Positions 5,534 through 11,067 of a stretch of DNA of 44,868 nt are shown in pieces. The notes under the pieces were generated by a model. The model searched no databases, was not told where the DNA came from, and was given only the letters and a program-made list of their open reading frames with translations. Position 1 is the stretch's first letter. Every line of letters begins with the position of its first letter. Origin of the DNA: Bacillota bacterium (GTDB taxonomy: Bacteria; Bacillota; SHA-98; Ch115); the NCBI GenBank assembly GCA_012842565.1, contig DUSO01000037.1, positions 1-44,868 on the forward strand. The letters run 5' to 3'. Position numbers and translations under genes: made by a program.

Positions 5534-6352
5534 ATGCTGAAGGCGGTGACTCAGGGCTTGACAGAGCAATCAAGACCAGCCCTCATCGAAGTCAGAGACC
5601 TGGTCAAAATATACAGAATGGACGGGGTCGAGGTAAGGGCGCTCCGGGGCGTATCCTTTTCCATATACCCGGGCGAGTTCGTAGCCATAATGGGGCCATC
5701 AGGATCCGGCAAGTCGACCCTGATGAATATCCTGGGATGCCTCGATGTGCCTACGCAGGGTACCTACAAGCTTGAGGGTCAGGAAGTCTCCAGTTTCAAT
5801 GAAAACCAGCTGGCGGAGATAAGAAACCGGAAGATAGGGTTTGTGTTCCAGACCTTTAACCTTCTCCCAAGGCTCACTGCTTTGCAGAACGTCGAGCTCC
5901 CACTCCTGTATGCAGCGGTGCCCCGCGCCAGGCGCAAGGCCATCGCCATCGAGGCACTCGAAAAGGTGGGCTTGAAGGAAAGGATGTACCACCGGCCGAA
6001 CCAGCTTTCCGGAGGGCAAGCCCAGAGGGTGGCCATTGCCCGGGCTCTGGTCAATGACCCTTCAATTATACTCGCCGACGAACCTACCGGCAATCTCGAT
6101 ACGCGCTCGGGCGAGGAGATCATGCAGATATTCCAGGCCCTTAACCGCCAGGGAAAGACTATCCTGATCGTAACCCACGAACGGGACATTGCCCTTCATG
6201 CAGAGAGGATACTCCACTTTAGAGACGGGCTCTTGCTATCCAATGAAACCGTCGAATCCCCGGTCGATGCATCCACATATCTCACTGAGCATGCCGGGCA
6301 TGAGAAGGACGGGGATTCGGTGGCGCCAGCTGAGGGAGTGGTGATTCAATGA
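5534..6352 (+). CDS. ABC transporter ATP-binding subunit (MacB/YknY-like)
   Basis: [44 protein letters not shown]. Confidence 0.95.
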
Positions 6353-7560
6353 ATCTGGCCGAAAGTCTCATGACGGCCATATCAAGCCTGAGCAGCAATA
6401 AGCTGCGGTCATTCCTCACCATACTCGGGGTAATCATTGGTGTGGCGGCGGTCGTAGCCATGGTGTCTGTGGGGGAAGGGGCCCGTACGCGGGTTACATC
6501 TCAGATAGGGAGCCTTGGATCGAACCTTGTGACCGTCACCCCCGGCCGTATCCGTGCCCTGCCCGGTATGGCCTTCGGTGCCCGGGGGGCATTCAATATC
6601 CTGACATATTCCCATTTTACGGAACTCAAACAGGCGGGATTACCGGGCGTTGCAGCCATCCTTGCTGAAGCCTCGACAAGGAAGGTAATCAGGTATGGGA
6701 AAAACAGCACCACTACGATGGTAGTCGGCACAACCCCTGAATACTGCGATGCCCGTAATTTCCACGTTGAATCCGGCCGTTTCTTTACGCAATATGACCT
6801 TGACCAGATGACCTGCGTGGCCGTTTTGGGCCGCACGGCTGCGGAAGACCTTTTTGGGATCGCTGACGCGGCGCTTGGCGCTACGATCCGGATAGGAAAT
6901 GTAAATTTCAGGGTTATCGGCGTGATGGAGAGCAAGACAATGGGAGGAAGGGATCTCGGTGACCAGATTTTCGTGCCGATTACTACTGCACAGATGCGGC
7001 TCACCGGAAACCGCTACCTGCAGAGCATCACCGTCCAGGCCACATCAGCTGAGAATACCGGGCCTGTTTACAACCGGCTCTATGAATTCTTCTTGCGGAA
7101 ACTAAAGGATCCCGAGAAATTCACGGTCACGAACCAGCAGGACATCCTCAATACAATTGAAGGCGTCACAGGGACGCTTACCCTGCTCCTCGGGGCTATC
7201 ACGGGCATTTCGTTACTCGTTGGCGGCATAGGGATAATGAATATCATGCTGGTCTCAGTTGCCGAAAGAACACGGGAAATAGGCCTGCGCAAGGCCATTG
7301 GAGCAAAACCCCGGGACATACTCATCCAGTTCATAATCGAATCCTCGACGCTCAGCGGGGCTGGCGGAGTCGTCGGGATCCTCTCGGGAATCGGACTTGC
7401 AAGGCTGATCGCCCGCTTCTCCAACTGGTCGACTACGATATCTCTTGCTTCTATTGCAATTGCTCTATGCGTCTCTATTGGGGTGGGGCTTTTCTTTGGC
7501 ATTTATCCGGCGCAACGTGCGAGCCGTCTCAGCCCAATCGTCGCGTTACGCTATGAATGA
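6349..7560 (+). CDS. MacB/FtsX-type ABC permease (YknZ-like)
   Basis: [64 protein letters not shown]. Confidence 0.95.
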
Positions 7561-7594
7561 CCATAGACTGCAGGTATTTGGAGGTGTTTGAGCC

Positions 7595-8740
7595 ATGCCA
7601 TTCCTATCTCCCCGGGTATTCCGCAACCGTAAACTGGCGTGTATGTTTATCGCAGCATTAATGAGCCTTGCCGTGATCACGGCCCCCTCCCTGGCACAGG
7701 ACCAGAATCCCAAAGACCAGGGAAAAGGCCTCACTTTGCAGCAGGCGGTGGAGCTTGCCTTAAGGCAAGGGAGTGCAATAAGGCTGGCTTCTCTCGATCT
7801 CAAAGACGCAGAGGTGTCATACAGACAGGCGACGGCTGACCAGCTCCTGAAGCCATCCGTCCTTACCGCACTATCCGCTGAAACAGCATGGGTTGTTGCA
7901 CAGAGGAACTACGAAATGGCAAAGGCGGATATAGCGACCCAGGTGGAACAGGCGTATTACGATGTGCTCAAGGCGGAACGAGGCCTGGTTCTTGCTCAGG
8001 AAAACCTGGAGCGGGCAAGAGAGCAGCTCAAGACCGCGGAGAGCAAATTCAAGCTCGGCATGGTGGCACAGATTGATGTCATCGCCGCGGAGGCGGAAGT
8101 TGCAGGTGCAGAAGCCAATCAAAGCAGGGCTGAGGCAGACCTCGCGCTAGCCAGAATGAAGTTCAACCGTGTTATAGGAGTCGCCCTTGATTCGCCGGTG
8201 AAACTTACAAGCCAGTTCTCGTATGATCCCATCCCTCTAGATCTAGAGAAAGCCATTCAATATAGCCTCTCCCACAGGCTCGAGATCAAGAAGGCCGAGG
8301 ATGCAGTGGCGCTAAAAGAGAAAGAGGTGGAAGTTTACAACAATGATTTCACCCCGTCTCTGGTCCTGGAGAAGTCCCGGATCGGCCTTGAAACTGCGCA
8401 GGCTGAGCTTGATGATACGAAGACTAACATCATTCTCGAGGTAAGGCAAAACTTCGAGAGCCTCAAGGACGCTGAAAGACAGGTGCCCCTCCAGGAGAAG
8501 GCACTGGCGAAGGTTAAGGAAAACCTCCGAATCGCTAAGGCCCGCTACGATGCAGGGGTTATCACAGCAATGGAACTTGCAGATGCGCAAAGGGCCGTAT
8601 ACCAGGCAGAGACCGACTATCTCAAGGCGATGTTTGACTATAACGTGGCCAGGGCGAAGTTCTATAAATCCCTCGGGATGCCCCTGGAAGAAAGGCCGAA
8701 TGCTGCAAGCCAGCTTGGGGCAGGTGGTACAGGGAGGTAG
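7595..8740 (+). CDS. TolC-family protein (TolC-2), apparently lacking beta-barrel strands
   Basis: Signal peptide (SLA-QD), LTLQQAVELAL, VEQAYYDVL, KFKLGMVAQIDV, RYDAGVITAMEL. No amphipathic beta segments in either repeat. Confidence 0.82.
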   Translation: MPFLSPRVFRNRKLACMFIAALMSLAVITAPSLAQDQNPKDQGKGLTLQQAVELALRQGSAIRLASLDLKDAEVSYRQATADQLLKPSVLTALSAETAWVVAQRNYEMAKADIATQVEQAYYDVLKAERGLVLAQENLERAREQLKTAESKFKLGMVAQIDVIAAEAEVAGAEANQSRAEADLALARMKFNRVIGVALDSPVKLTSQFSYDPIPLDLEKAIQYSLSHRLEIKKAEDAVALKEKEVEVYNNDFTPSLVLEKSRIGLETAQAELDDTKTNIILEVRQNFESLKDAERQVPLQEKALAKVKENLRIAKARYDAGVITAMELADAQRAVYQAETDYLKAMFDYNVARAKFYKSLGMPLEERPNAASQLGAGGTGR

Positions 8741-8831
8741 CTCTCCCCGAGCACTGGATAGACCTCGCTCCGTGTCAACTCACAACGTGATGGGGAAATC
8801 AAGATGGCGACAACACATGGCGGAATAGGCA

Positions 8832-8860
8832 TTGACTTTCTGGATTCCCAACCGTACAAT
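8832..8860 (+). promoter_or_regulatory. Sigma-A promoter of the thiamin operon
   Basis: TTGACT-N17-TACAAT immediately upstream of the TPP aptamer. Confidence 0.8.
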
Positions 8861-8886
8861 ACTGATAGATATTGAAGATATACGTT

Positions 8887-9015
8887 GCTCGCAGGGGGAG
8901 CCCCACATTGCGGGGCTGAGAGTGCGGGGCTGACTCGCAGACCCTTTGAACCTGATATAACATGGCCGCTTGTGGCTATGTTTCTGGGTAATACCAGCGC
9001 AGGGATTGACGGAGC
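8887..9015 (+). ncRNA. TPP riboswitch aptamer with an extra hairpin in J4/5
   Basis: GGGGAG-P3-CTGAGA-P3a-ACCC-TTTGAA-CCTGAT...CTGGGTAATACCAG-CGC-AGGGA, upstream of thiamin genes. Confidence 0.92.
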
Positions 9016-9030
9016 CCAAGACACAAAGCA

Positions 9031-9064
9031 ACCGCAGACCCAAGCTGGGCTGCGGTATTTGTTT
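9031..9064 (+). terminator. Intrinsic terminator forming the TPP riboswitch expression platform
   Basis: ACCGCAG(A)CCCA-AGC-TGGGCTGCGGT followed by ATTTGTTT. Confidence 0.75.
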
Positions 9065-9164
9065 CGCGGTCTACCGTGAGAGGCGACCTGCCTGGAGGGC
9101 GCAGCGCGAGTTGGCGCGCACGGGCGCGGCTTGGCGGGCACACGACCCGCTGGAGGCGATTCTT

Positions 9165-10274
9165 TTGAAATTCGGCCTTTACGTGATTCTTGATGGTAGT
9201 TTCGTCCGTGGGGGACCTCATCGTGGGACATCGTACGAGGACCTCGCCAGGGCAGTCCTGCTCGGCGGGGCAAGGGTCGTCCAGCTCAGAGACAAGGAGA
9301 TGCCTACGCGAGACCTTATCAACGTGGCAAGGCGCCTAAAAGAGATCGTCCACGCGCAGGGAGGCATCTTCATAGTGAATGACAGGGTGGACGTCGCGAT
9401 GGCCGTAGACGCTGACGGCGTACACCTGGGGCAAGAGGATATGCCTGTGGAGGTCGCTCGGCCGCTACTTGGGTATGGGAAAATCATCGGTGTATCGGCT
9501 CGCACTGTAGAGGCCGCCATCCGGGCGGAGAAGTCCGGAGCGACATACATAGGGACTGGAGCCATCCGGTCAACCTCAAGCAAACAGGATGCCACTGTGA
9601 TAGGTATCAACGGGCTGCGGGAGATTTGCAGGGCGACGGAGATACCCGTGGTCGCCATCGGGGGAATCACGACAGAAATGGTTGAGCCGGTAATCGAGGC
9701 CGGCGCCAGCGGGATTGCTGTCATCTCCGCCGTGCTGGGGGCACCTGACATCACGGGAGCTACTATGGAGCTGTATGCCAGGGTTGATGCAGCATTAGCC
9801 GCGAGGGACCGTGAGCGGATGCGGAGGGAATACCCCCAGGGCCCCAGGGTGGCTGCAAGTGTCCTGGTGTTTGACGGCACTGGACGGGTATTGCTTGCCA
9901 GGAGGGGGTGTGACCCGAATTACGGGAAGTGGAGCCTGCCCGGCGGGCTGGTAGAGCTCGGAGAGCGGGTGGAGGAGTGCGCGGCCAGGGAAGTATACGA
10001 GGAATGTGGCATAGAGGTGGAATTAAGAGGAATAGTGGATGTGGTGGATGCCATTATCCGCGATACAACAGGGCGGGTAAGGTTCGATTATGTGATAGTG
10101 GTCTTTAGAGGAATGCGCCGGAGAGGGGATCTCAGGCCTTCACTTGAACTCCTCGAGGCAGCATGGGTGCCGTTGAATGAAGCACAGGGGCTTGACCTCA
10201 CCGATACCACGCGGGATGTGCTGCAAAGATATGTCGGGTCGACGCCCGATGGCGCATTAACGAGGGGGGATTAG
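9165..10274 (+). CDS. thiE: Thiamin-phosphate synthase ThiE fused to a C-terminal Nudix hydrolase
   Basis: ThiE motifs [42 protein letters not shown]; complete Nudix box [26 protein letters not shown] start after GGAGG. Confidence 0.9.
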
Positions 10275-10275
10275 T

Positions 10276-11067
10276 ATGCCACTTGATGACATCGTCATTT
10301 CGGAGGCCATAATCAGGAGGTACTTGGATGACCTTATCTCCTATCTCAAGTCCGTTGTCGCGATCGTGGGGGCCGGGCCGTCCGGGCTTACCGCAGCGTA
10401 CTACCTGGCCAGGTCGGGGCTCAAGACGGTGATTTTTGAGCGCCGGCTCTCGATAGGCGGCGGCATGTGGGGCGGGGGAATGATGTTCAACCATATAGTT
10501 GTGCAGGAAGAGGCCAGGGAAATCCTAGATGAATTTGGAATCAACTACAAACCGTTCCAACCCTGTTATTATACCGCAGACTCCATTGAAGCTGTAACCA
10601 CGCTGGGCTCCAGGGCAGTCAAGGCCGGAGCCAAGATCTTCAACCTCCTGACGGCGGAGGACGTCATGCTCCGCGACGACCGTGTAACCGGTCTCGTCCT
10701 CAACTGGAGCGCCGTAGATATGGCTAAACTACACATAGACCCTCTCACCATCGAGAGCTCGTTCACCGTAGACGCTACAGGTCACGACTGCCAGGTCGTG
10801 CGTATCCTTCAAGACAAGCTCAGGCTGAAACTCGCTACGCCCAGCGGAGGGATCGAAGGGGAAAAGGCAATGTGGGCTGAACGGGGCGAGGGCGCTATCC
10901 TTGCCAATACCAGGGAGGTTTACCCCGGCCTTTTCGTAGCAGGTATGGCGGCAAACGCGGTCTTCGGCTCTCACAGGATGGGCCCGATTTTTGGCGGAAT
11001 GCTCCTCTCAGGCAGGAGGGTTGCTGAGATAATCCGCGAACAACGTGAAAGGGAGAGCCGGATTTGA
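10276..11067 (+). CDS. thi4: Sulfide-dependent (non-Cys) adenosine diphosphate thiazole synthase Thi4
   Basis: [23 protein letters not shown] (His at the yeast Cys205 position), [19 protein letters not shown]. Confidence 0.93.

Follow-up and report, generated by a model that had tools for sequence, protein, structure and literature searches.

A recurrent extra helix in the pyrophosphate-sensor arm of TPP riboswitch aptamers, found in the leader of a thiE-NUDIX/thi4 operon

The leader of a thiamine operon in a Bacillota bacterium carries a TPP riboswitch aptamer in which a 27-nt hairpin interrupts the pyrophosphate-sensor arm. The question raised by this locus is whether such an RNA still acts as an ordinary TPP switch, acts as a modified one, or has ceased to act at all. 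TPP riboswitches are more widespread, and better known structurally, than any other riboswitch class, and their pyrophosphate pocket serves as a model for RNA-metal-ligand recognition and as a drug-target template; a natural helix at the pocket loop shows where the TPP fold tolerates, or exploits, large additions. The stretch of DNA analyzed here, referred to as the window, is 44,868 nt long, and the features of the leader and operon are as follows.

8832–8860, plus strand: sigma-70-like promoter, with −35 TTGACT at 8832–8837, a 17-nt spacer, and −10 TACAAT at 8855–8860 (10 of 12 matches)
8883–9022, plus strand: TPP riboswitch aptamer, RF00059 full model 1–105, sub-threshold (37.4 bits, E = 9.6e-6)
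8887–8890, plus strand: predicted 5' strand of P1, partner 9012–9015 (MFE folds of aptamer and leader)
8917–8921, plus strand: UGAGA of J3/2, pyrimidine-sensing loop (sequence and Rfam alignment; role from the text of PMC3764141)
8923–8939, plus strand: optional hairpin P3a, 8923–8928 with 8934–8939 (MFE; aligned to P3a of the model)
8951–8956, plus strand: P4 5' strand CCUG (8951–8954) and canonical J4/5 A-U (8955–8956) (sequence, alignment, fold)
8957–8983, plus strand: 27-nt insert, comprising a 2-nt linker, a hairpin (8959–8967 with 8974–8982), and a 1-nt linker (folding)
8984–8997, plus strand: P5/L5, CUGG-GUAAUA-CCAG (sequence, alignment, fold)
8998–9003, plus strand: J5/4 C-G (C77 and G78 equivalents) and P4 3' strand (roles from the text of PMC3764141)
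9012–9018, plus strand: predicted P1 3' strand (9012–9015), overlapping a candidate antiterminator strand (9013–9018)
9031–9064, plus strand: predicted intrinsic terminator, hairpin 9031–9056 and U-rich tail 9057–9064 (folding)
9165–10274, plus strand: thiE (TMP synthase) fused to a C-terminal NUDIX domain (TMP-TENI, 1.1e-60; NUDIX, 4.2e-24)
10276–11067, plus strand: thi4-type thiazole synthase gene (Thi4, 3.3e-87)

The RF00059 covariance model matched the aptamer over its full length at about 17 bits below the Rfam gathering score of 54.3 bits, so that a default Rfam scan is silent on the window. The alignment bypassed the P5 region through a local end of 37 nt where 10 are expected, a surplus of 27 nt. 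P1 is short, with 4 bp in the MFE fold, and the P1 of the Rfam alignment includes non-canonical pairs. The TPP core of the window is complete, comprising UGAGA, CCUG-A-U, CUGG-GUAAUA-CCAG, C-G, and AGGGA. In the pyrimidine-sensor arm, P2 (GGGG/ACCC), P3, and the UGAGA loop both aligned and folded. The elements of the pyrophosphate-sensor arm were likewise all found, at 8951–8956 and 8984–9003, though the 27-nt helix interrupts the arm: the P5 strand CUGG occupies 8984–8987, L5 GUAAUA 8988–8993, CCAG 8994–8997, the J5/4 CG 8998–8999, and the CAGG that closes P4 9000–9003. The window therefore lacks a continuous two-helix P4/P5 arm, the hairpin at 8957–8983 being set between U62 and P5. According to the text of PMC3764141, the conserved nucleotides on the pyrophosphate side are U59, G60, C77, G78, and A80, a list that does not include A61 and U62; a metal ion is bound by G60, C77, and G78, and the pyrophosphate is contacted by G78. 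Equivalents of all five conserved nucleotides were found in the window aptamer, those of U59 and G60 at 8953 and 8954. A preliminary description of this DNA had called the TPP landmarks other than the interrupted step intact, and UGAGA, P4, P5, L5, and J5/4 are indeed all in place; it had also put a promoter and a terminator on either side of the aptamer, and these were recovered, the promoter by a scan and the terminator by folding.

The sequence also agrees with the 27-nt insert as first described, lying between the J4/5 A-U and the P5 CUGG. The stem drawn at that time (8959–8968 with 8973–8982, including the G-U pairs 8964/8977 and 8968/8973, and a CUUG loop) is present in the sequence, and ViennaRNA predicted 9 of its 10 pairs, enclosing a 6-nt loop, in the isolated aptamer as well as in the whole leader, which leaves the G-U 8968/8973 as a possible 10th pair. 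Folded by itself, the insert reached −12.2 kcal/mol (z = −4.7), a value equaled by none of 200 shuffles, and in silico deletion of 8957–8983 gave the textbook TPP secondary structure. The insert lies 3' of A61-U62, two nucleotides from the G60 equivalent. Its layout, a 5' linker of 4 nt counted from G60, 9 bp, and a 3' linker of 1 nt, places the window among aptamers with at least 13 nt inserted exactly between the J4/5 A-U and P5, usually as a hairpin with a 3' linker of 0 to 1 nt.

Downstream of the aptamer, the leader has the parts of an expression platform. The predicted terminator hairpin at 9031–9056 is bulged, with 11 bp and −18.4 kcal/mol, and is followed by AUUUGUUU; a pattern-based terminator scan of the leader returned no terminator, and the element at 9031–9064 was accepted from folding. 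Promoter-like sites numbered 1, versus 0.2 expected in shuffles. Once the 5' strand of the terminator was blocked, 9013–9018 paired with 9046–9051 (−63.8 versus −74.9 kcal/mol), a candidate antiterminator of 6 bp only. The aptamer is thus found in the leader of thiamine genes, thiE-NUDIX and thi4, together with a promoter, a predicted terminator, and a competing pairing; thiE-NUDIX starts with TTG, 8 nt after GGAGG (9152–9156).

An RF00059 search with a count of J4/5 insertions across genomes, as the preliminary description had suggested, was carried out in the 41 nearest genomes and gave 71 matches at E ≤ 0.01, in all of which the P4-P5 stretch was classified. In 43 matches, 0 to 4 nt separate P4 from P5 (canonical), while the other 28, in 24 genomes, have 13 to 91 nt at the same site. 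The sizes are 13 to 16 nt (17 matches, family f3), 22, 22, 29 (the window), 30, 34, 34, 38, 38, 45, 91, and 91 nt; in family f3, 17 of 18 genomes carry the insert. Each of the 23 sub-threshold matches in these genomes is an insert variant and each of the 43 canonical matches passes the Rfam cutoff, so the sub-threshold score is explained by the insert alone. Hence 23 of the 28 insert variants score below the cutoff, 11 of the 41 genomes have no RF00059 match above it, and insert variants are the sole TPP-type match in 11 of the 41. In the nearest relatives, the inserts measure 34 and 91 nt and are unrelated to that of the window. The 5' halves of two thiC leaders with 91-nt inserts (L033 and L034) are clearly homologous to that of the window; therefore, the site is conserved and its content has been replaced.

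These two inserts, at L033 268–362 (genome G001) and L034 271–365 (genome G003), are the largest seen, occur in genomes of different families, and each form a branched domain of about 28 to 32 pairs (z = −3.0 and −4.2). At the other end of the size range, the thiT leaders of genus g5 (L043 to L047, L192, and L157) have a 15-nt insert that does not fold and that resembles a partial copy of the adjacent P5-L5, as if it had arisen by local duplication.

The site is also occupied well outside the closest relatives. Across 401 evenly sampled genomes of the phylum, a consensus pattern with a P4-P5 gap of 0 to 30 nt gave 374 matches in 250 genomes, and the same kind of pattern with a gap of 10 to 40 nt gave 51 rows in 48 genomes. 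Of the 51 rows, 16 were judged to be canonical aptamers preceded by a chance ACCTG and were set aside. The remaining 35 inserts come from 32 genomes and amount to roughly one in ten of some 363 distinct matches to the pattern; these counts are rough because the pattern is strict and blind to inserts longer than 40 nt. One of the 35, of 16 nt, has no evident hairpin. In a scan of all prokaryotes with one genome per species, at least 33 true inserts were present among the 120 matches listed, an insert being counted as true if UGAGA preceded it and the final 8 nt of the gap were free of a P4-like CCUG, a filter that dropped 87 loci. Titles were available for 80 of the 120 loci, and the titled inserts among the matches listed belong to Bacillota/Firmicutes (including Dethiobacteria, Syntrophomonadaceae, and Desulfotruncus arcticus DSM 17038, whose thiC leader has two hairpins), Actinomycetota (an 11-sequence Thermoleophilia-type group with two tandem hairpins), and Cyanobacteria (Leptolyngbya sp. 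FACHB-8, Vacuolonema, and Synechococcales). The idea that the window insert was a singular oddity accordingly fell, since such inserts are frequent in its lineage and recur in other phyla.

Pairing in the inserts is maintained while sequence is not. Altogether, 51 distinct inserts were collected, of which 42 are 20 nt or longer. Among these 42 long inserts, 36 fold better than 95% of shuffles, the 3' linker to P5 measures 0 to 1 nt in 39, and the 5' linker after G60 measures 1 to 6 nt in 41. Some inserts of 13 to 15 nt, including those of genus g5, do not fold. Loops are not conserved, and stem sequences differ with pairing kept. In the 11 Thermoleophilia-type sequences, RNAalifold recovered both inserted stems, each with two-sided changes at one pair: AU to GC (3 sequences) in one, and CG to UA (4 sequences) in the other, none of which breaks pairing; two sequences have a non-canonical pair at the innermost position of the first stem. 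In the same group (L064 to L164, thiT leaders), P2 and the ACCC consensus are replaced by GCG/CGC-type pairs.

For the window's own hairpin, neither two metagenome pattern scans nor the related genomes held an orthologue with the same stem, and selection on this hairpin is consequently argued by analogy. Among the relatives, the usual place of thiE is within a few kb behind a riboswitch of the thiC or thiD type, apparently as part of that riboswitch's operon, and for this reason no alignment of the window's particular stem was found. Sequencing runs gave a few short contigs over the locus. A contig from run X2 is identical to the window over 8824–9006, hairpin included, and a contig from run X3 spans 8817–9032 with one change, A8960G, by which an A-U pair would become G-U; this change was seen in a single X3 contig at a depth of 2.8 and may be an error. 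A further X2 contig, of 1,790 nt, matches 8911–8955 only and diverges exactly after 8955; a 6-bp hairpin capped by GAAA lies within the 30 letters that follow, and the contig looks like a relative with a different insert at the same point. At the coverage of these few short contigs, four runs held no joints that would mark a hairpin-free variant. The RNA run X12 gave one contig, at 8666–8823, upstream of the leader.

The genes behind insert-bearing aptamers are ordinary members of the TPP regulon. In the related genomes, these aptamers precede thiC (L033, L034, and L042), thiD (L039 and L041), a gene for a thiL-like AIRS protein (L035), an ABC permease gene (L036), and an SSF transporter gene (L040), while thiT follows L037, L038, and every 13- to 16-nt variant that gave a match. 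In other phyla, among the matches listed, 21 of 33 chosen downstream open reading frames match thiamine families, 2 match other families, and 10 are unmatched, the unmatched or off-family frames being short or wrongly chosen.

Because the contact nucleotides are kept and an ordinary thiamine regulon lies downstream, we favor the reading that the window element is a terminator switch that senses TPP and tolerates an extra helix, and we put its probability at roughly 65%. In the mechanism proposed, a transcription-terminating OFF switch would control the thiE-NUDIX/thi4 operon in response to TPP. With TPP bound, P1 (8887–8890 with 9012–9015) would sequester 9013–9018, and the terminator at 9031–9056 would form; with TPP absent, 9013–9018 could pair with 9046–9051 and oppose the terminator. 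The insert would act as an optional third helix, here called P4a, on the pyrophosphate-sensor arm, turning the P4, J4/5, and P5 internal loop into a three-way junction. Since P4a leaves the strand after the J4/5 A-U, it would lie 3' of the metal-contacting G60 equivalent, opposite the C77/G78 strand, and it would abut P5 with a linker of 0 to 1 nt. We infer that P4a is a tolerated, fast-evolving variable insertion comparable to the optional P3a and probably not a new sensor, the insert variant being probably ordinary in function. Tolerance was one of the options raised for the hairpin at the outset, and it is the one that the evidence favors. The near-absent linker to P5 nevertheless weighs somewhat against it, as the same geometry would be expected if the helix stacked on P5 and reshaped the pocket.

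That consideration leads to the main rival, a minority possibility in our estimate, according to which the extra helix, perhaps stacked on P5, is a functional tuner whose three-way junction alters Mg2+/TPP affinity, folding kinetics, or thermal stability while the ligand is still TPP. The fixed site, the regular spacing on both sides of the stem, the compensatory changes that maintain the stems, and the retention of an insert by whole clades, as in 17 of the 18 genomes of family f3, all suit this proposal. They have to be set against lengths that run from 13 to 91 nt, a form that may be one hairpin, two hairpins, or a branched domain, and loops without conservation; moreover, close relatives swap the insert for unrelated sequence, the neutral pattern of variable insertions as described in general terms in the text of Barrick and Breaker (2007). 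A stronger version, which we think quite unlikely, makes the variant a distinct TPP subclass in which the three-way junction would replace the P4/P5 loop and P4a would stack on P5 and rebuild the Mg2+-pyrophosphate pocket. If that were true, affinity, selectivity for phosphate number, or temperature behavior might be unlike those of the crystallized aptamers, and the subclass would account for about one in ten TPP aptamers of a large Gram-positive phylum while being largely invisible to Rfam-based annotation. A change of ligand, from TPP to thiamine, TMP, or some other thiamine-related compound, an option that had also been raised, draws its sole support from the position of the insert next to the pyrophosphate-binding loop. 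The equivalents of G60, C77, and G78 and the UGAGA are kept, however, insert variants stand in front of the full TPP regulon (thiC, thiD, thiE, and thiT), and in 11 of the 41 genomes no other TPP-type match exists, which makes a change of specificity very unlikely.

The low Rfam score and weak P1 could in principle mark a riboswitch in decay that leaves the operon permanently on or off, but the insert alone accounts for the lost score, the architecture persists, with its core conserved and its stems paired, over families and phyla, and insert variants front thiC in genomes without another match above the cutoff; decay is thus highly improbable. We hold an equally low opinion of the proposal that the hairpin serves the expression machinery, by pausing RNA polymerase, by binding a protein, or by re-pairing with the expression platform. 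RNA polymerase pausing matters for riboswitch folding, and a stable hairpin followed by the U-rich stretch 8980–8985 just before P5 would fit a pause. Against this, no stretch of 6 nt or more in the hairpin is complementary to the remainder of the leader, a result that also speaks against the added switching element once suggested for it, and the variants share no conserved loop or stem sequence that a protein could recognize. Barely credible, finally, is the chance landing of a mobile or repeat element of the MITE/REP type in the aptamer: although the insert is a 27-nt inverted repeat, the 24-mer of the hairpin occurs once in the 2.55-Mb genome with up to 3 mismatches allowed, there are no target-site duplications and no terminal repeats beyond the stem around the insert, and unrelated inserts sit at exactly the same inter-nucleotide site in many lineages.

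Relative to known systems, the TPP aptamer with an extra helix is a recurrent structural variant of a known riboswitch class, and it is under-annotated. It shares with the canonical TPP riboswitch, or THI element (RF00059), the order P1 to P5, the UGAGA loop, the thi-box sequence, the G60, C77, and G78 equivalents, the L5 U-turn loop, the terminator platform, and the thiamine genes downstream; unlike the canonical form, the window has a helix of 9 to 10 bp between U62 and the first P5 pair. The HMP-PP riboswitch (thiS motif), a thiamine-pathway class distinct from TPP and of terminator-embedded architecture, exemplifies what a change of specificity would lead one to expect, but nothing in the window is like it and the full TPP core is kept. 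The canonical reference structure is the E. coli thiM aptamer (PDB 2GDI, as cited in the text of PMC3764141). The closest parallel within the class is P3a, which the window has too and which is the only optional TPP stem named in the text of Barrick and Breaker (2007) (PMC2258182). Both are sequence-variable hairpins that turn a junction into a three-way junction in some members; P3a, however, sits on the pyrimidine-sensor arm and is part of the Rfam model, whereas the window helix sits on the pyrophosphate-sensor arm, inside the ligand-binding loop. The additional stem mentioned in PMC4260697 was considered as a J4/5 helix and proved to be P3a.

The text of PMC2258182 further states that riboswitches generally tolerate variable stem-loop insertions at specific sites. 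The J4/5 helix resembles such insertions as they are described there, being long non-conserved stem-loops at fixed sites that leave the core undisturbed and, in unusual positions, give low-scoring bona fide matches; it differs in that the paper's text names no TPP J4/5 site. The curated TPP alignment of that study is reported in the text to hold 907 sequences. In its rows (Additional files 1 and 2), as visible up to the fifth L5 base, the stretch reads CCUGA.U.CUGG and the ungapped CCUGAUCUGG is absent, and the visible J4/5 therefore has only single-nucleotide insert columns. Long blocks of insert columns exist elsewhere in the alignment, in J2/4 (25 columns before GAA-CCUG) and, beyond the visible part of the rows, from the fifth L5 base onward. 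The statement in the preliminary description that length variation is normally found outside this junction is borne out by the visible part of that source, which in its text names P3a only and in its J4/5 has 1-nt insert columns. The description had also conceded that common J4/5 insertions would count against its reading; they are common in genomes and not in the visible rows of the 2007 alignment. Full-text literature searches, with Figure 5 of Barrick and Breaker (insertion sites) outside their scope, returned no description of a J4/5 helix in TPP riboswitches, and the variant is apparently undescribed so far.

The annotation gap has a direct consequence, as 11 related genomes would score as free of TPP riboswitches. 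With 23 of 28 variants under the cutoff and these 11 genomes blank, reconstructions of the thiamine regulon are incomplete for these lineages. The J4/5 helix site is, in addition, a natural scaffold for engineering or cryo-electron microscopy.

Several further observations concern the genome around the riboswitch. A second TPP riboswitch in the same genome (L001, contig C115:197–322) is canonical, scores 60.4 bits, and precedes a permease gene of the cytosine/purine/thiamine family. In relatives, the match to thiE-NUDIX is limited to the ThiE part, and NUDIX homologues lie elsewhere; a role in damage pre-emption has been described for Nudix enzymes associated with thiamine genes. Upstream of the riboswitch, 6349–8740 holds genes for a MacB/FtsX-type ABC permease and an outer-membrane efflux protein (OEP), and downstream, on the minus strand, lies a gene for a TRAM-domain RNA methyltransferase. 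A contig from run X3 carries an extra 15 bases behind 8756, shortly after the end of the efflux gene at 8740, and these look like a tandem duplication of the sequence next to them.
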